Position numbers and translations under genes: made by a program. A stretch of DNA of 64,000 bases from NCBI GenBank assembly GCA_963931275.1, contig OZ006992.1, positions 63,810 through 127,809 of the forward strand. The letters are read 5' to 3'. The notes under the pieces are model-generated. The model had not been told where the DNA came from. It made no database searches and saw nothing but the letters and a program-made list of their open reading frames with translations. Of the stretch, positions 3,550 to 61,365 are shown in pieces. This stretch comes from an uncultured Prevotella sp. GTDB taxonomy: Bacteria > Bacteroidota > Bacteroidia > Bacteroidales > Bacteroidaceae. Every line of letters starts with the position of its first letter. The stretch's first letter is position 1.

Positions 3550-3642
3550 GTGATTTGCGGAAGGCCGCAAATCGCCCTTCAAAAGGCGGCAAACCGCAAC
3601 GCAAAAGGGCATCTTTCGCACTGCGAAAGATGCCCTTTTGCT
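3550..3642. repeat. REP-like palindromic element (AAAGGC/GCCTTT family)
   Basis: Hairpins GATTTGCGGAAGGCCGCAAATC and AAAAGGGCATCTTTCGCACTGCGAAAGATGCCCTTTT. Same family as 27464-27543 and others. Confidence 0.7.
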
Positions 3643-3674
3643 ATGTGGTTGACTGTCAGTTATTTGTGACAGTG

Positions 3675-10699: not shown

Positions 10700-10701
10700 G
10701 T

Positions 10702-10801
10702 AATTCATAATTCACGATTCATAATGCATGATTGGGTCGGGTTCAGACAATACGCAGAGGCGTATGCCAAATTGTGAATTATGAATTGTGGATTATGAAT
10801 T
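10702..10801. repeat. periodic-unit hairpin between ptb and buk
   Basis: Arms 10702-10732 and 10770-10801 built from GAATTATGAAT-like units, ~26/31 complementary. Confidence 0.6.
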
Positions 10802-10844
10802 AGCTGTTGTGGCATTATGAATTATGAATAAGAATAAAAAAGAT

Positions 10845-11903: not shown

Positions 11904-11936
11904 TTTTTTGAATTAAGATTGAGGGCATTTTAAGTT

Positions 11937-12024
11937 AAGAATTAAGAGTTAAGGATTAAGAAAACCACCATAGTTAAATCATGGGCAAAGCATGTTTTCT
12001 TAATCCTTAACTCTTAATTCTTAA
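11937..12024. repeat. periodic-unit hairpin, 30-bp perfect stem
   Basis: TAAGAATTAAGAGTTAAGGATTAAGAAAAC (11937-11966) is exactly complementary to 11995-12024. Loop 28 nt. Confidence 0.85.
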
Positions 12025-14589: not shown

Positions 14590-14597
14590 TATTTTTG
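14590..14597 (+). promoter_or_regulatory. Bacteroidetes -7 box TATTTTTG
   Basis: 28 nt upstream of ATG 14625. Confidence 0.55.
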
Positions 14598-14624
14598 CAA
14601 CACAGATTACAAAAAATCATTGTC

Positions 14625-16124
14625 ATGAAAAGAAACTTTTTGTTTGCGAAAGTCCTCTTCCTCGCCGTCGCCTTTGCGTGCCTCGGCTGTGTGGGGGGCG
14701 TGGCGGCTGGTGCTGAAAGGCCTAAGCTGGTAGTCGGAATAGTGGTTGACCAGATGCGTTGGGACTACCTTTACCGTTATTACGACCTCTACGGCGAGGG
14801 CGGTTTCAAGCGTCTGATGGCCGAAGGCTACAATTGCGAGAACACGATGATTAACTATGTGCCCACCGTGACGGGCGTCGGCCACGCCTCTATCTTCACG
14901 GGCAGCGTGCCGGCCATCCACGGCATAGCCGGAAACAACTTCATCAAGGACGGCAAGATGATTTACTGCTGTGACGACTCCGCGGTGAGGGGAGTGGGCA
15001 GCGACACCGACGCGGGCCGCATGTCGCCGCGCAACATGCTGACGACGACCATCGGCGACGAGCTGAAAATCGCCACCGACTTCAAGGCCAAGGTGGTCGG
15101 CGTGTCACTGAAAGACCGTGCCTCAATCCTGCCCGCCGGCCATTCGGCCGATGGTGCTTACTGGATAGACAATTCCACGGGCACGTTCATCACCAGCACT
15201 TATTACATGGAAGAGCTGCCGCAGTGGGTTGTCGCCTTCAACAAGAAGTACGGCGGCAAGAGCGAGAGGGAGATAGGCTATTCAGCTTATGGCAACCTCA
15301 TCACCGCCGAGATGGCCAAGGCCGCCATTGAGGGCGAGGCGTTGGGGCAAGATGCTGTGACCGACTTGCTCACCGTAAGCTTCTCATGCACCGATAAAAT
15401 AGGCCACGAGTATGCCACGCACAGCCCAGAGATACGCGAAATATTCCTCGACCTCGACAAAAAACTGGCTGACTTCTTCACATATCTTGACCAAAAAGTG
15501 GGCAAGGGGCAGTATCTCGTGTTCCTCACGGCTGACCATGGTGCGGCCAACAACGCGCTCATGCTGCGTGAACACGGCATTCCGGCTGGCGGGTTTGTAG
15601 CTTCCGAGGTGAAAAAGGCCCTTGACGACTATCTTAAACAGAAGTTCGGCGTGCAACGCAGCCTCGTGGCAGAGGTTGCCGATTACAAGGTTTTCCTTGA
15701 CCGTGAGGCTGTCAGCGCGCAGTCGTTGCAGTTGGCCGAAGTGAAGGAGGCCGCCATCGACTGGCTGAAGTGTGACCCGCAGTATGCTTACGTGGTTGAC
15801 CTTGAGCATGCGATGGCCGCCACGCTGCCCGCCGTTGTCCGCGAGAGGCTCGTAAACGGTTACCACCGCCTGCGCAGCGGGGACATACAGATTGTGCTTA
15901 ACCCGGCGCATTATGAAGTGGGTTCAAGCGAAATCGGCCGCGGAACGACGCATGGCGTATGGAATCCGTATGACTCGCACATCCCGTTCATCCTCATGGG
16001 GTGGCACGTTAAGCCGGGAGCAACCAATGCAAAGACTACCATCAACGACATCGCCGCCACCGTCTGCGCCATGATTCACGTGCAGATGCCTAACGGATGC
16101 ATAGGCAACGCGGTGGAATTTTAG
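14625..16124 (+). CDS. alkaline phosphatase / nucleotide pyrophosphatase family protein (PafA-like)
   Basis: Signal peptide MKRNFLFAKVLFLAVAFA. VVDQMRWDYLYRY, PTVTGVGHASIFTG, LTADHG. Start placed at ATG 14625. Confidence 0.88.
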   Translation: MKRNFLFAKVLFLAVAFACLGCVGGVAAGAERPKLVVGIVVDQMRWDYLYRYYDLYGEGGFKRLMAEGYNCENTMINYVPTVTGVGHASIFTGSVPAIHGIAGNNFIKDGKMIYCCDDSAVRGVGSDTDAGRMSPRNMLTTTIGDELKIATDFKAKVVGVSLKDRASILPAGHSADGAYWIDNSTGTFITSTYYMEELPQWVVAFNKKYGGKSEREIGYSAYGNLITAEMAKAAIEGEALGQDAVTDLLTVSFSCTDKIGHEYATHSPEIREIFLDLDKKLADFFTYLDQKVGKGQYLVFLTADHGAANNALMLREHGIPAGGFVASEVKKALDDYLKQKFGVQRSLVAEVADYKVFLDREAVSAQSLQLAEVKEAAIDWLKCDPQYAYVVDLEHAMAATLPAVVRERLVNGYHRLRSGDIQIVLNPAHYEVGSSEIGRGTTHGVWNPYDSHIPFILMGWHVKPGATNAKTTINDIAATVCAMIHVQMPNGCIGNAVEF

Positions 16125-16128
16125 TCTG

Positions 16129-16242
16129 GAAGTTATAGAATTTAAAGAAGTTACAGAAGTTAAAGCCATTACCATTAATAAATAATGTGCCATTAATGCA
16201 TTTGGCTTTAACTTCTGTAACTTCTTTAAATTCTATAACTTC
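16129..16242. repeat. periodic-unit hairpin, 39-bp perfect stem (GAAGTTAAAG units)
   Basis: GAAGTTATAGAATTTAAAGAAGTTACAGAAGTTAAAGCC (16129-16167) is exactly complementary to 16204-16242. Loop 36 nt. Confidence 0.9.
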
Positions 16243-16313
16243 TTTTATCCTCTTTCAGTAAATCGTTTTGTTTTATCAGTAAATCGGATACGGCTTTTTT
16301 CTTTGTTTTTGTG

Positions 16314-16321
16314 TAATTTTG
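16314..16321 (+). promoter_or_regulatory. Bacteroidetes -7 box TAATTTTG
   Basis: 32 nt upstream of ATG 16353. Confidence 0.55.
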
Positions 16322-16352
16322 CAACAGGAAACAAAACAAAAGGCATAAAAAT

Positions 16353-17198
16353 ATGAAACTTATAGCAAACACCGAGTTTGGTGGCGAACGCCCGTTGTTC
16401 GCCTCGCACGACCTTCATCTTGACAATGTTACCATCCGTGAGGGCGAGTCGGCCATCAAGGAATGCAGCAACATTGTGGCTACCAACTGCCGCTTTGAGG
16501 GCAATTATCCCTTCTGGCACGTCCACGGCTTCACCATCCAAGACTGTTATTTCGCCGTGGGGGGCCGCTCCGCCCTGTGGTATTCTGACCACTTGAAGAT
16601 GAAAGACACGGTGATTGACGCGCCGAAGATGTTCCGTGAGATGAACGACATCGACATTGAGAACGTCGAGATGAACGATGCTGACGAGGTGTTCTGGCGT
16701 TGCAACCGCATCAACGTCAAGAACCTGAAGCTGCACGGGGGCACTTACCCATTCATGTTCAGCAGCGACATCCGTGTTGACGGCCTTGAGAGTGACAGCA
16801 AGTACGTCTTCCAGTACGTGAAGAACGTTGAAATCCACAACGCCAAAATCACTACGAAAGACGCTTTCTGGGAAGTGGAGAACGTCACGATTTATGACTC
16901 TGAGCTGAACGGAGAGTATCTTGGGTGGCACTCCAAGAACCTGCGTCTCGTGAATTGCCACATCTCCGGCGAGCAGCCTCTTTGCTATGCGCACGACCTT
17001 GTGCTTGAGAACTGCACTTTCGATGCCTCTTGTGACCGTGCGTTCGAGTATTCAACGCTCAACGCCGACATACGTGGAGCTGTAACGAACATCAAGAACC
17101 CCACATCGGGTCGTATCGTGGCAGATTCCATCGGGTCGGTAACGCTTGACGAGAACATCAAGTCTCCCGCCGATTGTGAAATCAAGACAAGGGGTTAG
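16353..17198 (+). CDS. DUF3737-like right-handed beta-helix protein
   Basis: 281 aa with repetitive ...N[VC].[IL].[DN]...G pattern. The antisense 249-aa ORF is judged spurious. Confidence 0.75.
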   Translation: MKLIANTEFGGERPLFASHDLHLDNVTIREGESAIKECSNIVATNCRFEGNYPFWHVHGFTIQDCYFAVGGRSALWYSDHLKMKDTVIDAPKMFREMNDIDIENVEMNDADEVFWRCNRINVKNLKLHGGTYPFMFSSDIRVDGLESDSKYVFQYVKNVEIHNAKITTKDAFWEVENVTIYDSELNGEYLGWHSKNLRLVNCHISGEQPLCYAHDLVLENCTFDASCDRAFEYSTLNADIRGAVTNIKNPTSGRIVADSIGSVTLDENIKSPADCEIKTRG

Positions 17199-19571: not shown

Positions 19572-19583
19572 AAATAGGGAATG

Positions 19584-19680
19584 GAGAATTGAGAATTGGG
19601 AATGGAAAATTATGATTTGTCTTGTGGATTAACGGACTGCAGAAGTAATCATAATTCTCCATTCCCAATTATCAATTCTC
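19584..19680. repeat. periodic-unit hairpin between convergent genes
   Basis: Arms 19584-19617 and 19647-19680, 32/34 complementary (GAGAATTGGGAATGG units). The right arm overlaps the tlpA-like stop. Confidence 0.8.
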
Positions 19681-20209
19681 AATTTAATTTGGAAAACCGC
19701 CTCGCGGCCAGTGTGTCGCCCATGGCTTTGACATCGACCGTGGCGAAGTCAACCTTGCCCTCGGGGTCGATGAGGTAGAGCGTGGGTATCCACCTTACGT
19801 TATACAGCGTGGCATACGCGCTTTCACGCCACGGCTTGCCCTCAAGGTGCTGCATCCAGTACAGCTCGTTCTCCTCGATGTACGCGCTCCACTGCTCCTC
19901 GTCTTCGTCAAACGATACGCCCACCATCGTCAGCCCCCGCTCGGCGTAGGCTTCATATATGCGCTTCATTTCGGGCGTGGCCTCCTGGCAGTCGGGGCAC
20001 CATGACGCCCAAAACTCTATCAGCACATACCCGCCGCGCAGTTCGCTCAGCCGGATGCCGTCAGGCCGTTCGGCCGTCAGGAGCGTGATGTCGGGCGCGG
20101 CCGTGCCCTTTTCGAGCAGCCCCTTGCCGTACTCGCTCGTGCCGTGTCCGTCTATCGTACACGAGATTATGCATAAGGCCAAGGCCGCGAAAGCCAAAAT
20201 ATTCTTCAT
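19679..20209 (-). CDS. TlpA/redoxin-family thiol-disulfide oxidoreductase lipoprotein
   Basis: MKNILAFAALALCIISC lipobox and WASWCPDC active site. Start moved to ATG 20209. Confidence 0.88.
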   Translation of the reverse strand: MKNILAFAALALCIISCTIDGHGTSEYGKGLLEKGTAAPDITLLTAERPDGIRLSELRGGYVLIEFWASWCPDCQEATPEMKRIYEAYAERGLTMVGVSFDEDEEQWSAYIEENELYWMQHLEGKPWRESAYATLYNVRWIPTLYLIDPEGKVDFATVDVKAMGDTLAARRFSKLN

Positions 20210-23409: not shown

Positions 23410-23623
23410 GTCTTTTGTCCTTATGGTTGTTATCGTTTACAGATGCAAAGATAATGCGTAAATCAATGACATACAAGAGGTTAACCTGGCGTAACACGGT
23501 TACGCCAACGTTACCATTGCTGGTTTGCAGGGTGTTGCAATTTAAGGTTTTACAATGTTTAACCTTTGTGGCTTCATTTTTAGACCTATAATGGTTACTT
23601 TTGTAAACCTTAATGGGTTGTTT

Positions 23624-23998
23624 ATGAATAGAACGGATACAGACATGGCACTCTTTCCGCAGTGCCCGATAAGGAATGTGTTGTCGAGGATAGGCGACAA
23701 GTGGTCGATGCTGGTGCTTTTCACGCTTGAAAAGTATGGTGTCCTGCGCTTCAACGGCCTGAAGCTGTACATCCCCGACATATCGAAGAAGATGCTTTCC
23801 GCGGTGCTGAAGACGCTTGAGGCTGACGGCTTGGTGTCAAGGAAGGTGTACGCCGAAGTGCCGCCGAGGGTGGAGTACGGCCTGACGGAGCGCGGGATGA
23901 CGCTCATTCCGCTTATTGACAACCTGATAAGCTGGGCGAAAGCCAATATGGATGACATATTGGCGGACAGGAACAATTATTTAATTCATAATGCATAA
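23624..23998 (+). CDS. HxlR-family winged-helix transcriptional regulator
   Basis: CPIRNVLSRIGDKWSMLVLFTL...RFNGLK..I..ISKKMLSAVLKTLEADGLVSRKVY.EVPPRVEYGLTERG. Start placed at ATG 23624. Confidence 0.9.
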   Translation: MNRTDTDMALFPQCPIRNVLSRIGDKWSMLVLFTLEKYGVLRFNGLKLYIPDISKKMLSAVLKTLEADGLVSRKVYAEVPPRVEYGLTERGMTLIPLIDNLISWAKANMDDILADRNNYLIHNA

Positions 23999-24081
23999 TG
24001 CACAATTCATAATAAGGCCTACGGTCAATGAGGAGACGGTGCGCAGCTTTATTATGAATTGTGCATTATGCATTATGAATT
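23983..24081. repeat. periodic-unit hairpin, 33-bp perfect stem, between convergent hxlR and nadB
   Basis: AATTCATAATGCATAATGCACAATTCATAATAA (23983-24015) is exactly complementary to 24049-24081. The left arm encodes the last residues and the stop of hxlR. Confidence 0.88.
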
Positions 24082-24085
24082 GAAA

Positions 24086-25906: not shown

Positions 25907-27241
25907 ATGACTAATTTTGCACCGATGATTACTAACCGAATATTCCGTCACAGGGCTTTTCTGCCCTGCCGTGCCGCCGTGGTCGCGGCTGTTGTTTCCC
26001 TGTTGTTGATGTCTTCGTGGTGTCCTGCCGTGGGGTGGGGGCGTGCCGTCAATGCCACAGCCGGTGGCGGCAAAGACACCGTAGAGGTGGATTCCGCTGG
26101 CGGCGACATCCTCATTTCAGAGCCAGACAGGCTTTGGCCGCTTGATGTGCAGTCGCGTCTTGAGACGTTGTTGGAGAGCAGCATCTTCGAGACTTCAACC
26201 GTGGGGATGATGGTTTACGACCTTACGGCCGACTCTGTGATTTTTAGGCATAACGAGCGGCAACTGATGCGGCCGGCCAGCACGATGAAGATGATGGTGG
26301 CCGTGGCGGCTCTCGACCGCTTGGGCAAGGACTACAAGTATGAGACAAGCTTGCTGTACACGGGCGACGTGGACGGCAACACGCTTGACGGCGACCTGTT
26401 TTGCAAGGGCGGGTTCGACCCGATGTTCGACTCAGGCGACCTCGACGTGTTTGTTGACAGCGTGCGCAGCCTTGGCGTTGACACTATAAGCGGCGACATC
26501 TACGCCGACGTTTCGATGAAGGATGACGACCGACTGGGCGAAGGCTGGTGCTGGGACGATGACAATCCGGTGCTTTCGCCGCTGCTGCTTTCACGTGAGG
26601 ACGACTTCTGCGAACGGCTGAGGAGCCGTCTGCGCAGGGTTGGCATTGTGGTGACAGGTGAAGTTAAGACGGGGCGCACGCCGCGCCGTGCCCGTGAGCT
26701 TTGCATTGTTTCGCGCCGGTTGGACGATGTTTTGCCGCGCATGATGAAGAAGAGCGACAACCTGTATGCCGAGTCGGTGTTCTATCATCTGGCCGCATCG
26801 GCTGGCTCGTCAGCACCGGCCACGGCGAAGACGGGGCGCAACGTGATGAACGGCCTTATAGAGCGGCTCGGCTTCAAGCCGTCAAGGTATTACATAGCCG
26901 ACGGCAGCGGACTGTCGCTTTACAACTACGTGTCGCCTGAATTGGAGGTGGCGTTCCTCAAATACGCCTACAAGCATGACCGCATTTATGCGCCCCTGTA
27001 TGCCGTAATGCCGATAGCCGGGGTTGACGGCACGCTCGGCAGGCGTATGCGCCACGGCTACGCCCGCGGCAATGTGCATGCGAAGACGGGCACGGTGACG
27101 GGTGTCAGCGCGCTGGCAGGATACTGCAAGGCGGCAAACGGGCATGTGCTTTGCTTCTCAATCATCAACATGGGCATACGCCATTCGTCGTCAGGGCGCA
27201 ACTTCCAGGACCGTGTCTGCGAGGCTCTTTGCCGGCCGTAA
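25907..27241 (+). CDS. dacB: D-alanyl-D-alanine carboxypeptidase/endopeptidase (PBP4, peptidase S13)
   Basis: PASTMKM (SxxK), SDN, AKTGT (KTG) motifs. Start uncertain (25889 GTG, 25907 or 25925 ATG). Confidence 0.88.
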   Translation: MTNFAPMITNRIFRHRAFLPCRAAVVAAVVSLLLMSSWCPAVGWGRAVNATAGGGKDTVEVDSAGGDILISEPDRLWPLDVQSRLETLLESSIFETSTVGMMVYDLTADSVIFRHNERQLMRPASTMKMMVAVAALDRLGKDYKYETSLLYTGDVDGNTLDGDLFCKGGFDPMFDSGDLDVFVDSVRSLGVDTISGDIYADVSMKDDDRLGEGWCWDDDNPVLSPLLLSREDDFCERLRSRLRRVGIVVTGEVKTGRTPRRARELCIVSRRLDDVLPRMMKKSDNLYAESVFYHLAASAGSSAPATAKTGRNVMNGLIERLGFKPSRYYIADGSGLSLYNYVSPELEVAFLKYAYKHDRIYAPLYAVMPIAGVDGTLGRRMRHGYARGNVHAKTGTVTGVSALAGYCKAANGHVLCFSIINMGIRHSSSGRNFQDRVCEALCRP

Positions 27242-27251
27242 GTCTTTTTTG

Positions 27252-27440
27252 GGAAGTTAAAGAAGTTATAGAATTTAAAGAAGTTAAAGACAAGTGTTTT
27301 GCTGCTTGCGTTTTTTGGAAGTTAAAGAAGTTATAGAATTTAAAGGAGTTAAAGCCAAATGCTTTGCCGATTGCGTTTTTTTTGGAAGTTAAAGAAGTTA
27401 TAGAAGTTAAAGGAATTAAAGCCAAGTGCTTTGCTCTTTG
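27252..27440 (+). repeat. three direct tandem copies (~65-67 nt) of a single hairpin arm plus junction
   Basis: Units start at 27252, 27317 and 27384: GGAAGTTAAAGAAGTTATAGAATTTAAAG[AG]AGTTAAAG[AC]C-A[AG][AG]TG(C)TTTGC.... All are in one orientation, with no complementary partner nearby. Confidence 0.85.
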
Positions 27441-27463
27441 TAATCAATTGATAATCAAGGATG

Positions 27464-27543
27464 TTGCAAAAGGGCATCTTCCGCATTGCGGAAGATGCCC
27501 TTTTGGCGTGCGTTTTGTGGCCTTTCGCCGTGCGAAAGGCCAT
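27464..27543. repeat. REP-like palindromic element
   Basis: AAAAGGGCATCTTCCGCATTGCGGAAGATGCCCTTTT, then GTGGCCTTTCGCCGTGCGAAAGGCCAT. Confidence 0.8.
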
Positions 27544-27549
27544 GAACTG

Positions 27550-27934
27550 GGTTCATCCGCAAACCTTTTGGATGGCAACAATGCGTAGCAGGGCGTCGAA
27601 GACGTCCAATGTAGCTTAGCCGCATGTGGAGTGAAACGGAACTTGCGGCATGTATGCGCAAATAATATCGTCCTCGAAGAGGGCGAACGGCATTTACGGT
27701 TGTAAGGTTTAAGGTTATACGGTTATTGGGGTATACGGACATACCGCATAACCGTAAGAACCCGCCACCGCATAACCCAACACGCCATTCGCCCCCTTCG
27801 GGGACGGTTGGGGTAGTTTCGACTTACCGCAGGTTACGTTCGCCGCGCTCACTCCACCGGCGGTTAAGCGGAGTTTGCCCCCTTCGGGGACAGGATATAC
27901 TTTTATGTACAATCCAAAAGGTTTGCGGATGAAC
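27550..27934 (+). mobile_element. 385-bp MITE copy A (non-autonomous element)
   Basis: Terminal inverted repeats GTTCATCCGCAAACCTTTTGGAT (27551-27573 versus 27912-27934, 23/23). Flanked by a direct 9-bp duplication CATGAACTG (27541-27549 and 27935-27943). ~95% identical to the reverse complement of 56713-57097. Confidence 0.85.
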
Positions 27935-28072
27935 CATGAACTGCAAATACGGTGATTGCTTATTGCTTGATGTCGAAAGCTTGTGCGCATGATACGAAGA
28001 CAGCCGTCATGGCGTGGCGGATTGTTGGTCGCCCACTGCCTGACGGCTGTCGTGATGTTCAAGAAAGCTCCT

Positions 28073-29797
28073 TTACTCAACCTCGGCCTCCGCTGCGCGG
28101 AAGTTTACAAGGTCTTCGGCGATGAAGCTCTTCACGTATGTGTAATGTCCTACAACGTCTTCTTCTGCGTAACGCACGTACACGTTCGCGCTCTTGTTGA
28201 AGAGCTGCGGCGCACGGGTGGCGTCGTCGAGTATGAGCAGCGACATTAGGATGTCTCCGGTCATGTCGTACAGGCGGCGTCCGAGGAAGTCGTGAGCCTC
28301 CTGGCTGCCAAGTTCCTTCACGTAGTTCACGGCCTGTTCGTACAGTTCCACCATCTTCCTGACACGCTCCTGGAGCGGTTTCAGCTCTTCGGCAACCTCG
28401 TTTTCAAGCATCTCTTTTATTATTCCGAGGTAAGTTCCGTTGGTGATGTAGCGGATGGCGGCCACAACCTGAAGCTGCGTTGTGCCCTCGTATATAGAGA
28501 AGATGCGCGCGTCGCGGTAGAGACGCTGGCACTTGTACTCCATGATGAAGCCCGAACCGCCGTGTACCTGAATGGCGTCGTAGGCGTTCTGGTTGACGTA
28601 TTCTGAGTTCATACCCTTGGCCACGGGCGTGAAAGCGTCGGCCAGGCGTGAGTATTTCTTCAGTTCCTGACGCTCCTCTGCCGTCAGTTTGCGTTCGCGC
28701 GAGATGTCCTCAAGAGCCTTGTAAATGTCAACGTAGCGCGCCGTCATGTACAGGATGCTGCGCCCTGCGTCAAGTTTAGCCTTCATGCGCGAGAGCATGT
28801 CGTACACTGCGGGGAAGTTTATGATGGCCTTGTCGAACTGCTTGCGCTCCTTGGCGTATGCCAACGCCTCGTTGTATGCGGCCTGGCTTACGCCCACGCT
28901 CTGGGCTGCTATGCCCAAGCGTGCGCCGTTCATCAGTGCCATCACATATTTTATAAGGCCAAGACGGGTGCTGCCGCACAGTTCGGCCTTGGCGTTCTTG
29001 AACACGAGTTCGCAAGTGGGAGAGCCGTGTATGCCGAGCTTGTTCTCTATGTGGCGCACAGTAACGCCGCCGTTCCTCTTGTCGTAGATGAACATCGACA
29101 GTCCGCGGCCGTCATGTGTGCCGGCTTCGCTGCGGGCGAGGACGAGGTGTATGTCAGAGTCTCCGTTCGTGATGAAACGCTTTACGCCGTTAAGCAGCCA
29201 GCAGCCGTCGGCTTCGCTGTACGTAGCCTTGAGCATTACGCGCTGCAGGTCAGAGCCGGCGTCAGGCTCGGTGAGGTCCATGCTCATCGTCTCTCCGGCG
29301 CAAACGCGCGGAATGTACTTCTGCCTCTGCTCCTCGTTGCCGAACTCATAGAGTGTCTCTATGCAGTCCTGCAAGCTCCAGATGTTCTGGAATCCGGCAT
29401 CGGCGGCGGCAACAAGCTCTGAAGCCATCGAGTAGGGAGTCACAGGCATGTTAAGTCCGCCGTAACGGCGGGGCATCGACAGTCCCCAAAGGCCGGCCTT
29501 TCGCGTTGCGTCAAGGTTCTCATAGGTCTTTGATGCGTAGTGCATGCGGCCGTCAACGAGGTGCGGCCCTTCCGTGTCCACTTCCTCGCTGTTCGGTTCA
29601 AGTATGTTGGCGGCGATGTCGCCGGTGATTTCCAACACTCTCTTATAGTTCTCGATGGCGTCCTCATAGTCAACGGGCGCGTCTGCGTATTCATCCTTGT
29701 CGGCGAAGTTGCGCTCCTTCAGCTCGACAATCCTTTTCATGAGGGGATGGTTGAGGTGGAACTCAAACTCAGGATGGTCTGTATAATAGTTAGCCAT
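28073..29797 (-). CDS. acyl-CoA dehydrogenase (long form, Etf-linked)
   Basis: 574 aa. ...LTEPDAGSDL..., GIHGSPT, IYEGTTQLQ motifs. Last gene of the etfB-etfA-acd operon. Confidence 0.9.
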   Translation of the reverse strand: MANYYTDHPEFEFHLNHPLMKRIVELKERNFADKDEYADAPVDYEDAIENYKRVLEITGDIAANILEPNSEEVDTEGPHLVDGRMHYASKTYENLDATRKAGLWGLSMPRRYGGLNMPVTPYSMASELVAAADAGFQNIWSLQDCIETLYEFGNEEQRQKYIPRVCAGETMSMDLTEPDAGSDLQRVMLKATYSEADGCWLLNGVKRFITNGDSDIHLVLARSEAGTHDGRGLSMFIYDKRNGGVTVRHIENKLGIHGSPTCELVFKNAKAELCGSTRLGLIKYVMALMNGARLGIAAQSVGVSQAAYNEALAYAKERKQFDKAIINFPAVYDMLSRMKAKLDAGRSILYMTARYVDIYKALEDISRERKLTAEERQELKKYSRLADAFTPVAKGMNSEYVNQNAYDAIQVHGGSGFIMEYKCQRLYRDARIFSIYEGTTQLQVVAAIRYITNGTYLGIIKEMLENEVAEELKPLQERVRKMVELYEQAVNYVKELGSQEAHDFLGRRLYDMTGDILMSLLILDDATRAPQLFNKSANVYVRYAEEDVVGHYTYVKSFIAEDLVNFRAAEAEVE

Positions 29798-29814: not shown

Positions 29815-30337
29815 TGAAGTTAGCAGGAGTTAACGGGAGTTAGGCGCTTCGCGCCGGAGTTAACGGACATGTGCCTTGTTGCTGATTACGGCTATATGTC
29901 GTCTTTTATTCCGTTGTTCTTTATTATTCCCTTACAATATGAATTCAGATACCAACTTGTTTTTCAATCAATGCCTGAAGGCTTTTCGCGTCTTCGGTAG
30001 TTATGTATTTCAGGTCTGTTGCCAAGATGATGTAATATCTGCATTCTTCCAGACTACCTTGGGCTATATTCAGAAATCTAAGTTTATCCGCTTTACCCAA
30101 TTTTCTGTATCCTTCAGCTATGTTTGAAGGAATAGACACCGCTGCTCTTTGGAATTGTGAAGTTAATCCGAATGCTTCTGTGGAAGGAAACTTTTTCGTC
30201 ATTTCATATACGGATAACACAAATTCATGTGCTATCTGCCAAGCTACTATGTTTTTGAAGTTGTTTGTCATAAAAGCATTTGTCTGTTAACTCCAGCGAG
30301 CGTAGCGAGCTAATTCCTGTTAACTCCAGCTTACTCC
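29815..30337 (-). mobile_element. inverted-repeat cassette 1 enclosing a four-helix-bundle ORF
   Basis: Arms 29815-29868 and 30282-30337 (GGAGTTAAC units, ~80% complementary). Fills the 552-bp etfA-acd spacer to within 12-18 nt of both genes. Confidence 0.7.
29945..30271 (-). CDS. four-helix-bundle protein (23S rRNA IVS protein / Avd-like family), possibly C-terminally short
   Basis: MTNNFKNIVAWQIAHEFVLSVYEMTKKFP...FQRAAVSIPSNIAEGYRK...AQGSLEECRYYIILA. 108 aa. Confidence 0.85.
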   Translation of the reverse strand: MTNNFKNIVAWQIAHEFVLSVYEMTKKFPSTEAFGLTSQFQRAAVSIPSNIAEGYRKLGKADKLRFLNIAQGSLEECRYYIILATDLKYITTEDAKSLQALIEKQVGI

Positions 30338-30349
30338 TTATTAAAAATG

Positions 30350-31372: not shown

Positions 31373-31382
31373 GTTTTCTTTA

Positions 31383-31917
31383 AGAATTTATAGAATTTAA
31401 AGAAGTTATAGAAGTTAAAGCCATTTGCTTTTATGGATGTATCATTCCATGGTTTCGCAGAATGTGCTTTCTTTGATTTTCCTGCTGTAGGCATTCAAAA
31501 GTCTGCTTGTGTTTTCTATTTCTTCACATAGCAAAGCATACCTGTTTTGGTCTATGTACCCCAAATCATGCGATAGTATGATGTAATACCTGCATTCTTC
31601 GAGACTGCCTTGTGAGATGTTCATAAAACGAAGTTTGTCAGCCTTGCTTATCTTTCTGTAACCTTCAGCAATATTGGCGGCAATAGAAACGGCCGCCCTT
31701 TCAAATTGTGGGCATAGGGCAAATCGTTCATGTCTTGGAAATAAACATGTTGTTTTGTATACATCCAGTACGAATTTGTGTGACGCTTGCCATGCCAAAA
31801 GATTTTGAAAGGTGTTGCTCATTTTGTTTTCTTGCTGTAAAGTATCCACGCCTTGCTGTCTGCCATGAAAGGTATTGGCTTTAACTTCTTTTACTTCTAT
31901 AACTTCTTTAACTTCCC
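31383..31917 (-). mobile_element. inverted-repeat cassette 2 enclosing a four-helix-bundle ORF
   Basis: Arms 31383-31422 and 31876-31917 (GAAGTTAWAG units, imperfect). Fills the 552-bp etfB-etfA spacer to within 7-10 nt of both genes. Confidence 0.7.
31442..31822 (-). CDS. four-helix-bundle protein (23S rRNA IVS protein / Avd-like family)
   Basis: MSNTFQNLLAWQASHKFVLDVYKTTCLFP...FERAAVSIAANIAEGYRK...SQGSLEECRYYIILS. 126 aa from ATG 31822. Confidence 0.88.
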   Translation of the reverse strand: MSNTFQNLLAWQASHKFVLDVYKTTCLFPRHERFALCPQFERAAVSIAANIAEGYRKISKADKLRFMNISQGSLEECRYYIILSHDLGYIDQNRYALLCEEIENTSRLLNAYSRKIKESTFCETME

Positions 31918-31924
31918 AATGAAT

Positions 31925-32876: not shown

Positions 32877-32989
32877 GGAGTTAAAGGAGTTAAGGGAGTC
32901 AAAGGAGTTAAGGACGCATGCTTTACGTGTTGGTAACCAACAGGGCATTTGTCTTTAACTCCTTTGACTCCCTTAACTCCTTTAACTAC
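32877..32989. repeat. periodic-unit hairpin (GGAGTTAAAG units), 37/39 stem
   Basis: GGAGTTAAAGGAGTTAAGGGAGTCAAAGGAGTTAAGGAC (32877-32915) pairs with 32951-32989. Lies just downstream of the META-domain gene. Confidence 0.88.
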
Positions 32990-34303: not shown

Positions 34304-36232
34304 ATGATAGACAAAGCCACTATTGACAAAATCATGGACGCGGCGAACATCGTTGACGTCGTGTCTGAGTTCGTCACCCTGCGAAAGGCCGGGGTGAACT
34401 ACAAGGGGCTGTGCCCGTTCCACAACGAGAAGACGCCTTCGTTCGTGGTGTCGCCCTCGAAGGGCTACTGCCACTGCTTCTCGTGCGGCAAGGGCGGCAA
34501 CGCCGTGGGCTTCATCATGGAGCATGAGCAGATGACCTACCCCGAAGCCCTGCGCTGGCTGGCCAAGAAATACAACATAGAAATCCACGAACGGGAACTG
34601 ACCGACGAGGAGAAGCGCGAGGAGAGCGAGCGCGAGAGCCTGTTCATAGTGAACGACTGGGCCTTGCATTACTTCCAGGACAATCTCATGAACACCGAGC
34701 GCGGGCGTGCCATCGGCCTTGCGTATTTCCGCTCGCGCGGCTTCCGCGACGACACCATCAGCCGCTTCCAGCTCGGTTACGCAATGCCTGAGCGCGACGC
34801 CCTGGCCAAGGCCGCAAGGGCGAAAGGCTTCAAGGAGGAGTTTCTCATAACCACGGGGCTTTGCTACCGCCGCGATGACGGCACGCTGCAAGACCGCTAC
34901 GCCGGGCGCGTCATCTTCCCCGTGCATACCGTTACGGGGCGCGTAGTGGCCTTCGGAGGCCGCATCCTGGAGAACAACAAGAAGGCGGCGAAGTATGTCA
35001 ACTCGCCCGAGTCGCTCATCTACCACAAGAGCAACGAGCTGTACGGCATATACCAGGCCAAGCACGCCATAACGAAACAGGACCGGTGCTACCTCGTAGA
35101 GGGATATATCGACGTCACGTCGATGCACCAGAGTGGCGTTGAGAACGTCGTGGCATCGTCTGGCACGTCGCTCACCACGGGGCAAATCCGCCTGATCCGC
35201 CGCTTCTCTACCAACATAACCGTGCTTTACGACGGCGACGCCGCCGGCATACATGCCTCCATACGAGGCATCGACATGCTGCTGGCCGAGGGCATGAATG
35301 TCAAGGTGTTGCTGCTGCCTGACGGCGACGACCCTGACAGCTTCGCCCAAAAGCACCCGGCGGAGGAGTTTCGCAATTACATCGAAGCCCACCAGACTGA
35401 CTTCATCGAGTTCAAGACCAACCTGCTGCTCCGTGGCGTCACCGACCCTGTAAAACGTTCGGAGGCTATCAGCAGCATAGTCAAGAGCGTGTCGGTTGTG
35501 CCCGACCAAATCACACGAGCCACGTATCTGACCGAATGCGCACATCGTCTCGGTATGAGTGAATCGACGCTGATAAACACCGCCAACCAGTTCATACGCG
35601 GCGACATTGAGGAGAAGCGCAAGGAACAGCGGCGTGAGGAGGCCAAGGCCGACGGCCCGGTGAAGCCTCTGCAGCCGCTAAACGCCACAGCGGGGCAGCC
35701 CTCTGTTGAGTACATGTTGATGCAAATGGTCGTGCGCCACGGGCAGGAGACGCTTTACAAGGACATCGAGACCGAGGACGGCGGCAAGGTTGACCTCAGC
35801 GTGTCGCAGTATGTCAGTTACGACCTCGGGGCTGACGACCTGAAGTTCAACAACGACCTGTACAATCGCATGTTGGCCGAGGCCGTGGCACACAACGACG
35901 ACGAGGGCTTCAATGCCGAGGCTTATTTCACCCATCACCCCGACATCGACATCAGCCGCACGGCCACAGACATGGCCATCGACCATTTCCAGTTGAGCAA
36001 GAGCCTGCAAGTGAAGCGCGACGAGGACACCCTGCGCAACCAGGTTGAGCATCTAATACTCGACTTCCGCATGGATTACGTCGAGCGTCACCTCAAGGAG
36101 CTGCAGCGTGAAATCAGCCTCGCGGCCAACGATACCGACAAAGTGATGAAGCTGATGGCCGAATACAAGGACATGCAAGCCATACGCAACGAAATCGCGA
36201 AAGAGCTTGGAAGCGACATATTGATTAAATGA
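34304..36232 (+). CDS. dnaG: DNA primase
   Basis: Zinc-binding CPFHNEKTPSF.V....Y.CFSCG.GG and TOPRIM EGYIDV...YDGDAAG. Confidence 0.95.
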   Translation: MIDKATIDKIMDAANIVDVVSEFVTLRKAGVNYKGLCPFHNEKTPSFVVSPSKGYCHCFSCGKGGNAVGFIMEHEQMTYPEALRWLAKKYNIEIHERELTDEEKREESERESLFIVNDWALHYFQDNLMNTERGRAIGLAYFRSRGFRDDTISRFQLGYAMPERDALAKAARAKGFKEEFLITTGLCYRRDDGTLQDRYAGRVIFPVHTVTGRVVAFGGRILENNKKAAKYVNSPESLIYHKSNELYGIYQAKHAITKQDRCYLVEGYIDVTSMHQSGVENVVASSGTSLTTGQIRLIRRFSTNITVLYDGDAAGIHASIRGIDMLLAEGMNVKVLLLPDGDDPDSFAQKHPAEEFRNYIEAHQTDFIEFKTNLLLRGVTDPVKRSEAISSIVKSVSVVPDQITRATYLTECAHRLGMSESTLINTANQFIRGDIEEKRKEQRREEAKADGPVKPLQPLNATAGQPSVEYMLMQMVVRHGQETLYKDIETEDGGKVDLSVSQYVSYDLGADDLKFNNDLYNRMLAEAVAHNDDEGFNAEAYFTHHPDIDISRTATDMAIDHFQLSKSLQVKRDEDTLRNQVEHLILDFRMDYVERHLKELQREISLAANDTDKVMKLMAEYKDMQAIRNEIAKELGSDILIK

Positions 36233-36428
36233 ATAATGAAAAATTAATGATGAATAATCGGGGATAATAATGAATGATTTGAAAAAATCCATAATGGACG
36301 AACTAACTGCGCTGGCTCATGAATGGATGTGACGATGTAACTTGACGTTTCATTTTCCGTTTCCAACGCTTTCGTACATAAAGCGGCGCGGCGTGATTTT
36401 TCATTATTCATTTTTCATTATTCATTAA
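36226..36428. repeat. periodic-unit inverted repeat (GAATAATGAAAAAT units) with long spacer
   Basis: TAAATGAATAATGAAAAAT (36226-36244) versus 36410-36428, 18/19. Additional unit copies lie on both sides. Overlaps the dnaG stop. Confidence 0.55.
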
Positions 36429-44377: not shown

Positions 44378-45895
44378 ATGATTGTAGACGAACTGGCACG
44401 CCAGATAACAGCTTCTTTCGGCTTTGCTCCCACGGCGGAACAAGCGGCCGCCGTGGATGTGTTTTGCCGTTTCATGACCGATGCCGACGACCACGCGGTC
44501 ATGATATTGCGCGGTTCGGCGGGAACGGGCAAGACCACCTTGTCGTCCGCCATTGTGAAGACGCTCGCCCGTTTGGGGCGGAAGCTCGTGCTGCTTGCCC
44601 CCACGGGGCGTGCGGCCAAGGTGTTCTCGCTGAACTCGGGCAAGCGAGCGTTGACCATACACAGGAAAATCTACCGCCAAAAGACATTCGCCGCCAGCGG
44701 GGGATGCTTCAACCTTAACGACAACCTCGCGCAAGATACGCTCTTCATAGTTGACGAAGCGTCGATGATAGCCAACGACGGGATGTCAGACACGATGTCG
44801 TTCGGCACGGGGCGACTGCTCGACGACCTCGTGTGTTACGTCTACGGCGGGCGCAACTGCCGCCTGATGCTTGTAGGCGACAAGGCGCAGCTACCGCCGA
44901 TAGGCGAGGATGAGTCGCCCGCCTTGATGTCCGCCTACATGGCCGGTTACGGCCTGAAGGTGTATGAGTGCGACCTGACCGAGGTGTTGCGCCAGGCCGA
45001 AGGCTCGGGCATATTGTACAACGCCACGGTTGTGAGGCGGATGATTACCCATGACGAGATGACCCTCTTGCCGAGAATCACCTTCTCGCGGTTCGCCGAC
45101 ATACGCATGGTGCCGGGCGACGAACTCATCGAGCAGCTTGCCGGTAGCTACTCGGCGGTGGGCGAGGACGAGACAATCGTCATCACGCGGAGCAACAAGC
45201 GCGCCAATATCTACAACGCCGGGATACGCAACATGGTGCTTGGGCGTGAAGAGGAGCTGTCAACGGGAGACATGCTCATGGTCGTGAAGAACAATTATTA
45301 TTGGTTGGAAAGGGAAAAACAGGCCATCCCTGTCTCGCCGGCGGGGATAGAACAGGCAGTCGGCAGCGGCGGTCAGCCTTCCACGCGCGGCGATGGCGGC
45401 GTGGGGCTGTTCATCGCCAACGGTGACAGGGCTTACGTGCAGCGTGTGCGCAACGTGCGTGAGCTGTACGGTTTCCGCTTCGCCGACGTGTGGCTGCAGT
45501 TCCCCGATTACGACGATTACGAGTTGCAGGTGACGATGATGGTTGACACGTTGACGTCGGAAGCCCCGGCGTTGACCCGCCAGCAGAACGAGCAGTTGTT
45601 CAATGCCGTGCTTGAGGACTATCAGGACGTGCCCCGCAAGGCCGACCGCATCAAGCGCATACGCGAGGACATGTACTATAACGCCCTGCAGGTGAAGTTC
45701 GCCTATGCCGTGACCTGCCACAAGGCGCAGGGCGGGCAGTGGGCGCATGTGTACATAGACCAGGGCTACATGACCGACGATATGCTCACGCCTGATTACA
45801 TCCACTGGCTTTACACTGCCTTCACCCGCGCCACCGAGCGGCTGTTTCTCGTCAACTGGCCGAAGGCGCAAACTCTTTTTTTAGCAGACGAGTGA
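44378..45895 (+). CDS. RecD/Pif1-like SF1 ATP-dependent DNA helicase
   Basis: Walker A GSAGTGKTT, Walker B FIVDEASM, C-terminal AVTCHKAQGGQW... Confidence 0.88.
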   Translation: MIVDELARQITASFGFAPTAEQAAAVDVFCRFMTDADDHAVMILRGSAGTGKTTLSSAIVKTLARLGRKLVLLAPTGRAAKVFSLNSGKRALTIHRKIYRQKTFAASGGCFNLNDNLAQDTLFIVDEASMIANDGMSDTMSFGTGRLLDDLVCYVYGGRNCRLMLVGDKAQLPPIGEDESPALMSAYMAGYGLKVYECDLTEVLRQAEGSGILYNATVVRRMITHDEMTLLPRITFSRFADIRMVPGDELIEQLAGSYSAVGEDETIVITRSNKRANIYNAGIRNMVLGREEELSTGDMLMVVKNNYYWLEREKQAIPVSPAGIEQAVGSGGQPSTRGDGGVGLFIANGDRAYVQRVRNVRELYGFRFADVWLQFPDYDDYELQVTMMVDTLTSEAPALTRQQNEQLFNAVLEDYQDVPRKADRIKRIREDMYYNALQVKFAYAVTCHKAQGGQWAHVYIDQGYMTDDMLTPDYIHWLYTAFTRATERLFLVNWPKAQTLFLADE

Positions 45896-45983
45896 CGAGC
45901 AGACGAGCAACAAGCAGACGAGCAATAAGCAAACAAGTGACAAGCAACAAACAAATCACCTTGTCTGCTCGTCACTCGTCTGC
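45884..45983. repeat. periodic-unit hairpin (GCAGACGAG units), 21-bp perfect stem
   Basis: GCAGACGAGTGACGAGCAGAC (45884-45904) is exactly complementary to 45963-45983. The left arm encodes the helicase C-terminus (...LADE*). Confidence 0.8.
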
Positions 45984-46053
45984 TTGTCTGCTTAAAAAGA
46001 GGCTTGTCTGCTGATAAAAATCGTAAGCAATTCAGCGTGTTTTCGTTTCAATT

Positions 46054-46130
46054 CCAAAAGGTGGCCTTTTGGCGTGCGATTTGCCGTGTCTTGCAATGTG
46101 AAAGGCCACCTTTTGCAATGCCGTTTGCGC
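46054..46130. repeat. REP-like palindromic element
   Basis: CCAAAAGGTGGCCTTTTGGCGTGCGATTTGCCGTGTCTTGCAATGTGAAAGGCCACCTTTTGCAATG. Confidence 0.8.
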
Positions 46131-46314
46131 CCTTCTGCCGTGTTGCGGGGTGCTGGCTTGTTTTTGTCCGTGCGTTAAGTCGCCGGCAGGGAGGCGTCCG
46201 CCTGATTTTTACTGGGAACTTTTGCGCATGTCGTTTGTTTTTCGTAATTTTGTAGAATGATAGTTCCGCATGGCGAAATTGTCACTGTGTAAGACCTGAT
46301 TAGTGTAAAAAGAC

Positions 46315-50070: not shown

Positions 50071-50084
50071 TATTTCGGGTGGTT

Positions 50085-50205
50085 GAAGGAGTTGGGGGAA
50101 GTCAAGGGAGTTAAAGGCAAATGTCTTTCTTTCAGATTTTTCCCAAATGCTGCGATAAGGCATCTGTCTTTAGCTCCTTTGACTTCCATTAACCCCTTTA
50201 ACTCC
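50085..50205. repeat. periodic-unit hairpin (GGAGTTAAAG/GGAAGTCAAG units) between RR and HK genes
   Basis: Arms 50085-50118 and 50166-50205, ~78% complementary. Occupies most of the 145-bp RR-HK spacer. Confidence 0.65.
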
Positions 50206-54903: not shown

Positions 54904-54919
54904 AAAATAATTAAGAGTT

Positions 54920-54992
54920 AAGAATCAAGAGCTAAGAAAAAATGCCTTGTCGGATGTTCCGACAAGGCATTTTTTCTTAGCTCTTGATTCTT
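54920..54992. repeat. periodic-unit hairpin, 34-bp perfect stem with 5-nt loop, between convergent genes
   Basis: AAGAATCAAGAGCTAAGAAAAAATGCCTTGTCGG (54920-53) ATGTT, then the exact complement at 54959-54992. Imperfect unit copies extend both arms to ~54909 and ~55028. Confidence 0.9.
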
Positions 54993-55028
54993 GATTTCTT
55001 AGCCCTTAGTTCTTAACCCTTGATTTTT

Positions 55029-56712: not shown

Positions 56713-57097
56713 GGTTCATCCGCAAACCTTTGGGATAGTACATAAAAGTCTATCCTGTCCCCGAAGGGGGCAAACTCCGCTTAACCGCCGGTGGAGTGAG
56801 CGCGGCGAACGTAACCTGCGGTAAGTCGAAACTACTCCAGCCGTCCCCGAAGGGGGCGAATGGCGTGTTGGGTTATGCGGTGGCGGGTTCTTACGGTTAT
56901 GCGGTATGTCCGTATATCCCAATAACCGTATAACCTTAAACCTTACAACCGTAAATGCCGTTCGCCCTCTTCGAGGATGATATTATTTGCGCATACATAC
57001 AGCAAGTTCCGCTTCACTCCACATGCGGTTAAGCTTAATTGGACGTCTTCGACGCCCTGCTACGCATTGTTGTCATCCCAAAGGTTTGCGGATGAAG
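56713..57097 (-). mobile_element. 385-bp MITE copy B (inverted relative to copy A)
   Basis: Same length and ~95% identity to copy A. 9-bp flanking duplication CATCCTTCG (56704-56712) / CATCTTTCG (57098-57106). Confidence 0.85.
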
Positions 57098-61151: not shown

Positions 61152-61156
61152 AAAGG

Positions 61157-61243
61157 TAAAAAAGTAAAACGGTAAAAAGGTAAAACAAGCTGAAAGCGTT
61201 CTTTGCATCAACTGTTTTACCTTTTTACCGTTTTACTTTTTTA
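61157..61243. repeat. periodic-unit hairpin (GGTAAAAAG units), 31-bp perfect stem
   Basis: TAAAAAAGTAAAACGGTAAAAAGGTAAAACA (61157-61187) is exactly complementary to 61213-61243. Confidence 0.88.
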
Positions 61244-61254
61244 TTTTTATTCTT

Positions 61255-61337
61255 GTCTTTTCACCTTTTCATTGTTTTCCTTTTTCACCTTCATCCTTGT
61301 CTTTTCACCTTTTCACTGTTTCACCTTTTCACCTTTG
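61255..61337 (+). repeat. one-orientation periodic array (CTTTTCACC units)
   Basis: CTTTTCACCTTTTCATTGTTTTCCTTTTTCACCTTCATCCTTGTCTTTTCACCTTTTCACTGTTTCACCTTTTCACC. No complementary arm in the window. Confidence 0.75.
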
Positions 61338-61365
61338 TTTATTGTCTTTTCTTTCCTATAACGCA

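Follow-up and report, generated by a model that had tools for sequence, protein, structure and literature searches.

Why does a Prevotella genome carry, directly behind a gene, a long hairpin without an open reading frame (ORF) whose arms are nearly those of ORF-bearing cassettes elsewhere in the same region? The hairpin occupies positions 16129–16242 of a 64,000-nt stretch of contig OZ006992.1 from an uncultured Prevotella sp. close to Prevotella sp. CAG:1058 (the window, to which all coordinates refer unless a related locus is named), and the cassettes lie in the etf operon of the same stretch. We put the probability at roughly 0.55 that the hairpin is the ORF-less form of a family of palindromes of the intervening sequence (IVS) type, which sit in gene 3′ ends and operon spacers of one Prevotella lineage. 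Within that family it is an ordinary member, and the interest lies in the family and in its link to the IVS proteins.

A preliminary description of this locus, made from the sequence alone, reported a perfect 39-bp stem between 16129–16167 and 16204–16242. The stem is fully complementary over those 39 bp, or 40 bp with an additional A-T pair, and, counting in the 7-bp stem that lies past a 4x4 internal loop (ATTACC opposite GCATTT), the pairing covers 51 nt at 92%. The predicted RNA fold has an energy of -65.1 kcal/mol, compared with -16.1 ± 3.0 kcal/mol for 200 dinucleotide shuffles, none of which equals it (z = -16.2). The left arm (16129–16167, plus strand) consists of four 9-nt purine-rich units, GAAGTTATA, GAATTTAAA, GAAGTTACA and GAAGTTAAA, followed by GCC; the top (16168–16203, plus strand) contains a 5′ junction ATTACC, the 7-bp stem CATTAAT/ATTAATG around a 12-nt loop, and a 3′ junction GCATTT (AAATGC on the minus strand); and the right arm (16204–16242, plus strand) is the perfect complement of the left and is followed by TTTTATCC, with the promoter-like TAATTTTG of the downstream gene at about 16303–16310. 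ATTACC and GCATTT together form the internal loop, which is conserved, and this polar junction recurs in cassette 2 (described below) and at L013, L169, L174, L182 and L089 (L-numbers denote related loci compared with the window). The element begins 4 nt past the stop codon of a type I phosphodiesterase gene (14595–16124), and a DUF3737 gene with its own Bacteroidetes-type TAnnTTTG box lies 110 nt beyond its end.

The hairpin was compared among ten independent conspecific metagenome assemblies that diverge from the window by 0–1.7% over 3.2 kb. All 114 nt are identical in nine of the ten, some of them on contigs longer than 100 kb, with four single-nucleotide polymorphism sites in the remaining 120 nt of the spacer; since nine independent assemblies carry the same 114 nt, the hairpin is not an assembly artefact. 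In the tenth assembly (L202, about 1060–1075) the right arm is shorter by one 9-nt unit. Nothing in the window matches Rfam at gathering thresholds, so it contains no rRNA, and no tRNA or tmRNA is found in it. Permissive Rfam scans of 16050–16360 and 27200–28100 return generic long-hairpin (miRNA-precursor) matches alone, far below threshold, and matches to sigma-70 promoters around the hairpin are at chance level.

The ORF-bearing cassettes are found in an operon ordered etfB–etfA–acyl-CoA dehydrogenase (acd), with their ORFs on the operon strand in the two spacers. Cassette 1, between etfA and the acyl-CoA dehydrogenase gene, contains a 108-aa ORF (29945–30271, minus strand, as are all parts of both cassettes); its 3′ arm in the sense of the ORF (29816–29868) is built of GGAGTTAAC units with an embedded GC-rich mini-repeat, and its 5′ arm and junction (30272–30338) carry GAC-AAATGC-TTTT-ATG. 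Cassette 2, between etfB and etfA, contains a 126-aa ORF (31442–31822, with the ATG at 31822); its 3′ arm (31376–31436) reads GAATTTATAGAATTTAAAGAAGTTATAGAAGTTAAAGCC-ATTTGC-TTTTATGG on the plus strand, and its 5′ arm and junction (31863–31923) have GCC-AATACC in the same polarity as the plus strand of the 16129 hairpin. Both ORFs match PF05635 (E = 4e-37 and 5e-35) as well as TIGR02436, and are members of the four-helix-bundle "23S rRNA intervening-sequence protein" family. The cassettes are promoterless: inverted repeats of 53–61 nt bracket each ORF, with no space left for a promoter.

The arm of the 16129 hairpin had been described as almost that of cassette 2, and the two are indeed identical at 37 of 39 positions, with the variant units in a common order (x, GAATTTAAA, GAAGTTAyA, GAAGTTAAA, GCC). 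Similarity between hairpin and cassettes also reaches 9–13 nt past the periodic units into unique sequence. When the hairpin is aligned with the L013 cassette, which is the ortholog of cassette 2 in a sister species, 52 of 57 positions match on the left, including all nine of the non-periodic arm bases ATTACCATT, and 38 of 40 on the right. The right 53 nt of the hairpin match the right end of cassette 2 at 47 positions, including an inner CCAT..GCA..TGG that in cassette 2 is directly 3′ of the ORF stop codon, and CCATTAATGCATTTGG of the hairpin matches CCATAAAAGCAAATGG of cassette 2 at 12 of 16.

Six loci of this arm type are present in the window, among them two further ORF-less hairpins. The first (32877–32989, minus strand; 43 nt paired at 93% over 32879–32987) has GGAGTTAAAG arms and the junction GAC-AAATGCC, and lies between the stop codon of a META-domain gene and the etfB promoter. 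The second (50082–50205, plus strand) is degenerate, with GGAGTTAAAG-type arms that are 78% complementary (46 nt over 50082–50202) and the junction GGC-AAATGT, and fills a 145-nt spacer between co-oriented genes. Both are as described beforehand, and the junction strings quoted at 27350, 30271, 31422, 32951 and 50118 are all present.

Elsewhere, an nhmmer profile made from the copies in the window, covering 30 nt of arm and 12 nt of junction, finds elements in at least eight species, both ORF-bearing (L013, L082, L169–L177 and L178–L181) and ORF-less (two sites each in L013 and L064, and one each in L175 and L177). The most compact cassette, at L182, reads arm-GCC-ATTACC-TTTTTTAT-ATG...TAG-CAATAAA-GCATTT-GGC-arm, with 16 nt before the ORF and 13 nt after it, and corresponds in its architecture to the 16129 hairpin with an ORF in the loop. 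The frequency of the junction beside arms was assessed in 56 inner-junction windows and 56 outer-flank windows of 28 non-redundant periodic-arm hairpins. ATGC is present in 15 of the 56 inner windows and one of the outer (about 2.4 are expected by chance, an estimate for a 14-mer window), and CAAATG in six and none, respectively, so that the motif is enriched next to arms relative to background; AAATGC occurs 42 times in the whole window, counting both strands. In a palindrome such as this, the junction is best regarded as a conserved stem top that reads alike on both strands. Collectively, the shared arms and junction mark the hairpin and the cassettes as homologous and not just similarly periodic, and the earlier proposal of common descent is sustained by the identity in non-periodic sequence, the nhmmer profile and the L182 architecture.

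A general rule in which the junction ATG is the ORF start codon was considered and rejected, as ORF-less hairpins have the motif too, and cassette 2 and L178 have it antisense at their 3′ ends. In cassette 1 the junction ATG (30279) opens a three-codon upstream ORF (uORF; minus strand, 30271–30281), MLL*, whose TGA overlaps the start codon of the main ORF (ATGA). Cassette 2 (minus strand, 31820–31868) has a uORF, MADSKAWILYSKKTK*, that starts near the junction and ends in the same ATGA overlap with the ORF start. The arrangement in both cassettes suggests coupling by termination and reinitiation; the feature is not conserved in L013 or L182.

ORF-bearing and ORF-less elements occupy the same sites, and over about 100 related loci the spacers either are empty or contain one of the two. 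A Segatella copri strain (L066), for example, has a hairpin between etfB and etfA. Across 80 Prevotellaceae genomes, the etfB–etfA and etfA–acd spacers are about 5 nt in most species, 150–200 nt where they contain ORF-less hairpins, and 480–730 nt where they contain cassettes. At the etfB–etfA site in the clade of the window, a GAAGTTAAAG/GCC-ATTACC cassette is present in the window, L013, species X and species Y, PF05635 cassettes with other arm units in L012 and L015, a remnant in L014, and an ORF-less GGAGTTAAG/GAC-AAATGCC hairpin in L009–L011, which are nested among cassette-bearing lineages in the etfA tree. At the etfA–acd site, cassette and hairpin alleles segregate within species (L174 and L175/L177; L169 and L171), with flanks that are 99.6–99.8% identical and undisturbed as far as the stop and start codons. 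These alleles support the view that an intergenic site can hold either form, with or without an ORF, and that the two alternate there even in one species. Of cassette 1, L009 still has the outer left arm but not the interior, and its right half belongs to another type; the locus folds at just -25 kcal/mol and is a decayed mosaic.

The arms themselves change rapidly. The etfA–acd hairpin of L175 (4401–4564) has three 9-nt units (27 nt) more in its left arm than that of L177 (1697–1855), so that the arms are unequal; unit number changes by slippage, within species and in whole-unit steps. At the phosphodiesterase/DUF3737 site a long hairpin is present in three species with different arm units: L089 has AATGAA arms with the polar junction CC-AATACC...CATTT-GG as in the 16129 hairpin, and L091 and L092 have AAGAGTT arms. 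Arm flavor likewise differs between sister species at the dnaG/PLD, S13/acd and 23983 sites. Polymorphism takes the form of replacement and not of clean empty/filled pairs, and no empty or ORF-bearing allele of the exact 16129 site was found in the metagenomes, where the phosphodiesterase genes of the nearest relatives are 75–78% identical. In general, the family consists of dispersed, fast-turning-over palindromes in transcribed, non-promoter positions.

Several further observations concern the assembly and recombination of these elements. The dnaG/PLD spacer of L015, which is orthologous to 36228–36426, has a AGCAGACAAG-type left arm and a ATTATGAAT-type right arm that are not complementary. 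It appears to combine two hairpin families, which implies that elements have recombined or that one was inserted into another. The 3.2-kb L176 contig combines an etfA of species Y (0–1 mismatches per 50 nt) with an acd of species X, with the switch point within the cassette; it may have been misassembled at the repeat that the two share or may stem from real recombination between the species, and was set aside as an example of cassette transfer between species. The L090 contig ends inside a hairpin arm, and many clusters of PF05635 homologues are known only from contigs of 0.5–2 kb. As the arms break short-read assemblies, the abundance of the elements in metagenome-assembled genomes is probably under-counted.

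The cassettes are consistent in their placement but not in their cargo. Eleven PF05635 ORFs are found in 1.42 Mb (the window and 80 loci), all in etf spacers and all co-oriented with the operon. Seven further clusters of homologues are also co-oriented with both neighbors, at distances of 47–100 nt from each; five are in etf spacers, and the others are in a GDSL lipase–dnaG spacer and between genes for an OEP and an LpxA-like protein. In L016, L020, L052, L060 and L084 (etfA–acd spacer), and in L070 and L071, this operon spacer instead has DUF559 (PF04480, Vsr-like) or GxxExxY/PDDEXK_3 cassettes, all co-oriented with the operon, so that three unrelated families of small proteins alternate at a single site. 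DUF559 has a weak match to a homing-endonuclease model (E = 6e-6), GxxExxY is PD-(D/E)xK/Cas4-like, and the PF05635 cassette proteins match no PADLOC defense model. Arm type tracks cargo: GC-rich arms are present in five of five DUF559 cassettes and G[AG]AGT[TA]A arms in all PF05635 cassettes. The DUF559 arms are GC-rich compound inverted repeats, AGCCTCACCCCC..CCCCTCTCCAAAGGGAGAGGGGAGT-A[AG][AT]ATG, common to the ORF-less hairpins at L082 2879 and 7343, and this sharing represents an independent second instance of the relation between ORF-less and ORF-bearing elements.

The reading that we prefer can be set out as follows. An element comprises two long terminal inverted repeats of tandem 7–9-nt purine-rich units with a conserved inner junction (consensus ..AAAG-[GA]CC/GAC-A[AT][AT]TGC / A[AT]TACC..), enclosing either a loop of 25–45 nt or a small promoterless gene, and the cargo of the GAAGTTAAAG/GGAGTTAAG arm type is a PF05635 gene. 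It would be transcribed within the host mRNA, where the A/U-rich 40-bp stem could serve as a substrate for RNase III by analogy to rRNA IVSs and the intercistronic sites of phage T7. Cleavage would free the cassette mRNA or trim the host 3′ end and leave the flanking cistrons unharmed. Processing of this kind would account for the tolerance of the elements in essential, highly expressed operons and for their preference for highly transcribed units. ORF-bearing copies that lose their interior would give rise to the ORF-less ones, which would then persist or spread in hairpin form.

As to the direction of descent, we regard deletion, from cassette to hairpin, as plausible. Four points speak for loss of the ORF: the L009 remnant, the tree in which ORF-less lineages are nested, the precedent of the Coxiella IVS (described below), and the strict pairing of arm type and cargo. 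The earlier suggestion that ORF-less hairpins are deletion derivatives can thus be maintained insofar as the two forms alternate at the same sites, with a remnant in L009 and nested ORF-less L009–L011, but no clean internal deletion has been recovered. Several findings weigh against the preferred reading. Among the co-existing alleles compared, no pair represents a clean deletion of the ORF with the arms identical; the inserts have a bimodal size distribution, and neither the etf spacers of the 80 Prevotellaceae nor the 1.42 Mb yielded a partial ORF. The ORF is found in both orientations relative to the asymmetric junction. Most hairpin flavors have no known ORF partner, and for the TTCATAA, AAGAATT, GGTAAAA and GAGAATT flavors no ORF-bearing counterpart is found in the roughly 1.9 Mb examined. 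The junction motif is missing from about 12 of the 28 periodic-arm hairpins (about 40%). Arm mismatches on the transcribed strand include about five G.U and about ten A.C, a small sample; with no excess of G.U they lend no support to selection on RNA structure, and fit young or concertedly evolving DNA palindromes equally well. The hairpin loops (25–45 nt), in which a search for remnants of the ORF ends had been suggested, are too short to hold any, and no partial PF05635 pseudogene turned up; this leaves some probability for the opposite direction, insertion of an ORF into the top of a hairpin.

In that opposite polarity the hairpins are primary, either self-propagating or grown by slippage, and PF05635, DUF559 and GxxExxY are secondary selfish genes that home into their tops; the AAATG junction is then the insertion or recognition site and the 16129 hairpin an unoccupied target. 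We regard this as the most serious competitor, though a distinctly less probable one, and it retains its share of credence because of the lack of a clean deletion, the bimodal sizes, the two ORF orientations and the partnerless flavors. It accounts for the conservation of the inner boundary at the junction while the outer boundary and unit number vary, for the presence of AAATGC 5′ of the ORF in cassette 1 and of A[AT]TACC in cassette 2, L013 and L182, for the absence of decaying ORFs alongside the bimodal inserts, and for the far greater number of hairpins than of cassettes. Two of the three cargo families, DUF559 and GxxExxY, have nuclease folds, and a group I intron homing endonuclease is among the DUF559/Vsr-like folds (PMC3424549). 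PF05635, which is the cargo of this arm family, has neither a nuclease fold nor a match to PADLOC, and homing into existing hairpins is difficult to reconcile with the strict correlation of arm type and cargo family, with a cassette state that appears ancestral at the etfB–etfA site, or with L009 as a visible product of decay.

A bolder version combines features of both directions, and we offer it as an unlikely but instructive possibility: mobile IVS-type cassettes would parasitize highly transcribed units, rRNA in some phyla and etf and other operons in Prevotellaceae, each as a tandem-repeat stem excisable by RNase III around a promoterless PF05635, DUF559 or GxxExxY gene. The AAATGC/ATTACC top would be a recognition site, for cassette proteins acting in trans or for homing, and the ORF-less hairpins, at about a quarter of the gene 3′ ends of the lineage, would be non-autonomous derivatives or empty landing pads. 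If true, the origin of the rRNA IVSs would be explained, and three large families of orphan proteins would gain a function.

The hairpin could alternatively be a 3′-end structure of its host gene, such as a terminator or attenuator, a stabilizer of the mRNA 3′ end or an intercistronic processing site, and resemble the cassettes through shared constraints or recombination. Its placement fits, in that such hairpins lie 0–12 nt past stop codons, are never in divergent spacers and are enriched in convergent ones; a long hairpin is present at the phosphodiesterase/DUF3737 site in every close relative, and it is invariant across strains in a spacer that otherwise varies. As a terminator it is poorly built: a scan of 15900–16500 returns no terminator-like site, the arms are 28% G+C, and the stem is followed by TTTTA alone and not by a U-tract. 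The same elements are present inside the etfB–etfA–acd operon, where termination would be harmful, and must be dispensable there, as most Prevotellaceae have spacers of about 5 nt. With arm sequences that are replaced wholesale between sister species, and homology to cassettes that reaches into non-periodic sequence, we judge a host-encoded role to be improbable.

More doubtful still is a role at the level of DNA, as a cruciform, an attC-like recombination site or a tandem array of protein-binding sites. The wobble-type mismatches lack strand bias, DNA slippage or template switching typically leaves perfect palindromes with unit-level indels, and the promoterless co-oriented cassettes, imperfect inverted repeats and conserved unpaired patch recall integron cassettes. 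In the gene and Pfam listings of the window and of the flanks of related loci, no integrase, recombinase or transposase is found nearby, the ORF has an inverted repeat on each side and not a single attC, and the many unit sequences would require many binding proteins. Chance low-complexity similarity or misassembly, to which AT-rich periodic arms that inflate apparent similarity and repeats that break short-read assemblies (the L090 contig end, and clusters only on contigs of <2 kb) might point, is effectively refuted by the fold z-score of -16, the identity in nine independent assemblies, the shared order of variant units, the identity into unique sequence and the strong enrichment of junction k-mers.

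The window has about 14 periodic-arm hairpins overall, in seven or eight unit flavors, several of which recur nearly base for base in other species. By spacer type, they are present in none of eight divergent, five of eight convergent and nine of about 45 tandem spacers; all lie downstream of stop codons, and they usually begin 0–12 nt past one. Those of other flavors than the 16129 arm include hairpins at 10701–10802 (TTCATAA units, period 7, starting 2 nt past a stop codon), 11935–12024 (AAGAATT/AAGAGTT units, with the minus-strand junction AAAAC-ATGCTTTGCC), 19580–19684 (GAGAATT units, between convergent genes), 23980–24084 (CATAATG units, between convergent genes, with other flavors at the orthologous site of sister species), 45883–45988 (AGCAGACGAG units), 54904–55030 (AAGAGTT units, with a perfect top AAAAAATGCCTTGTCGGA/TCCGACAAGGCATTTTTT, exactly filling a convergent spacer) and 61152–61248 (GGTAAAA units, period 8, beginning at the stop codon of the upstream gene), and a longer element at 36228–36426 (AATGAAxA units, between dnaG and a PLD gene), the orthologous sites of which have GC-rich or TTCATAA-type hairpins. 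TAA, TAG or TGA is present in nearly every unit, and the arms therefore halt translation in several frames from either side. Mechanically called ORFs at 23555–23998, 45941–46255, 61168–61419 and 27455–28080 run into or lie within hairpin arms or a 384-nt repeat, and are probably spurious.

An unusual feature is a solo-arm array at 27253–27440 (plus strand), with three tandem direct copies of arm and junction, ..GAAGTTAAAG[AC]C-AA[AG]TG[CT]-TTTGC..TTTTTT. The copies are arranged head to tail with a period of about 65–67 nt, each with TTTGC..TTGCG and a T-run, and without a complementary arm; the META–etfB spacer of L013 has a similar duplicated arm and junction, and both arrays probably arose by slippage or unequal recombination. 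Two other types of repeat are present. The 384-nt repeat (27550–27935 and 56713–57096) is in opposite orientation and 96% identical in its two copies, with terminal inverted repeats that pair perfectly over 24 bp (GGTTCATCCGCAAACCTTTTGGAT), a periodic hairpin of the GGTTATACGG type inside and no match in Rfam; similar periodic units are found at L013 17766, and the repeat looks like a separate element of the miniature inverted-repeat transposable element (MITE) kind. A G+C-rich hairpin, GCAAAAGGGCATCTT(T/C)CGCA..TGCG(A/G)AAGATGCCCTTTTG, recurs at gene ends (3592–3650, 27468–27508 and the S13/acd spacer of L011) and looks like a separate, conventional terminator-like family.

In the searchable literature on PF05635, TIGR02436, GxxExxY, DUF559 and Prevotella hairpin repeats we found no description of these elements, which does not prove that there is none. 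They present the IVS architecture outside rRNA, in many copies, and at defined operon spacers their ORF-bearing and ORF-less alleles segregate within species. Where the 23S rRNA IVSs come from, how they move, what purpose they serve and what the S23p/PF05635 proteins do have been open questions for about 30 years (PMC4990558), and the Prevotella elements offer a tractable natural system in which allele turnover can be dated from metagenomes and the stem-top motif is a candidate binding site. In practical terms, the hairpins break short-read assemblies, create spurious small ORFs, and may shape the processing of operon mRNAs in a dominant gut genus.

Several known systems share some of these features. 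As with integron cassettes and their attC sites, there are small promoterless co-oriented ORFs that rely on an upstream promoter, and imperfect palindromes with conserved unpaired bases, but there is no integrase or array at an attI site, and the ORF lies inside the inverted repeat instead of ahead of it. Intrinsic terminators differ in having a G+C-rich stem and a U-tract, which the 16129 hairpin lacks. The intercistronic RNase III sites of phage T7 (R1.1 and others) are hairpins between co-transcribed genes; they are short, unique and fixed, have an internal loop in the stem, and are cleaved to give stable monocistronic mRNAs. The Prevotella hairpins also lie between genes and have a stem internal loop that could direct processing in the same manner, but their 40-bp stems are perfect, repetitive, and gained and lost.

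The repetitive extragenic palindromes (REPs), BIMEs and REPINs, with their RAYT (IS200/IS605-like) transposases, are likewise strain-variable, and lie just past stop codons and between convergent genes; effects on mRNA 3′ ends have been proposed for these palindromes. REPs are 20–40 bp with a conserved GTAG/CGTC tag (PMC3733652), whereas the arms here are tandem arrays of 30–55 bp without that tag. No RAYT gene was seen in the window and about 1.9 Mb of related loci, no whole-genome search having been made.

Like MITEs in their relation to insertion sequence (IS) elements, the hairpins are short, multi-copy, non-coding intergenic elements that share terminal inverted repeats with a longer ORF-bearing element, are polymorphic in insertion site and are presumably co-transcribed with neighboring genes; the Correia/NEMIS elements of Neisseria are an example of MITEs that are cleaved by RNase III in mRNA. 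The analogy between MITEs and IS elements, drawn in the preliminary description, breaks down at the partner, a four-helix-bundle protein and not a transposase, of which none was seen in the loci examined. Nor is there a visible target-site duplication: no direct repeat abuts the arms at the inspected borders of 16129, 32877, 50082, cassettes 1 and 2, and L178. The outer ends here are ragged, with varying unit numbers, and the inner ends conserved, which is the opposite of transposon ends.

The closest resemblance is to the 23S rRNA IVSs of Leptospira, Coxiella, Salmonella and others. In both, the inverted-repeat stem has a short loop inside it in some cases and a promoterless PF05635 gene in others, sequences flanking the insert form a long helix (here a stem of 39–51 bp, and cassette arms of 53–61 nt), members with and without the PF05635 ORF co-exist (here the ORF-less 16129, 32877 and 50082 hairpins with the same arms), and occurrence is sporadic among strains and species and in a very highly transcribed unit. 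RNase III requires about 20 bp of duplex, which the stems here exceed. The S23p IVS of Coxiella has a 5′ stem with tandem heptamers (GACAGAT) in strain-variable copy number, is cut by RNase III at the first repeat, and has a decaying ORF with a 176-bp deletion in one strain (PMC4990558). The rRNA IVSs differ in being sited in helix 25 or 45 of the 23S rRNA, while the Prevotella elements are in mRNA operon spacers and gene 3′ ends, with many copies per genome, several arm flavors and far more regular tandem repeats. The elements are IVS-like in architecture and REP- or MITE-like in genomic habit, and are full members of none of these classes.

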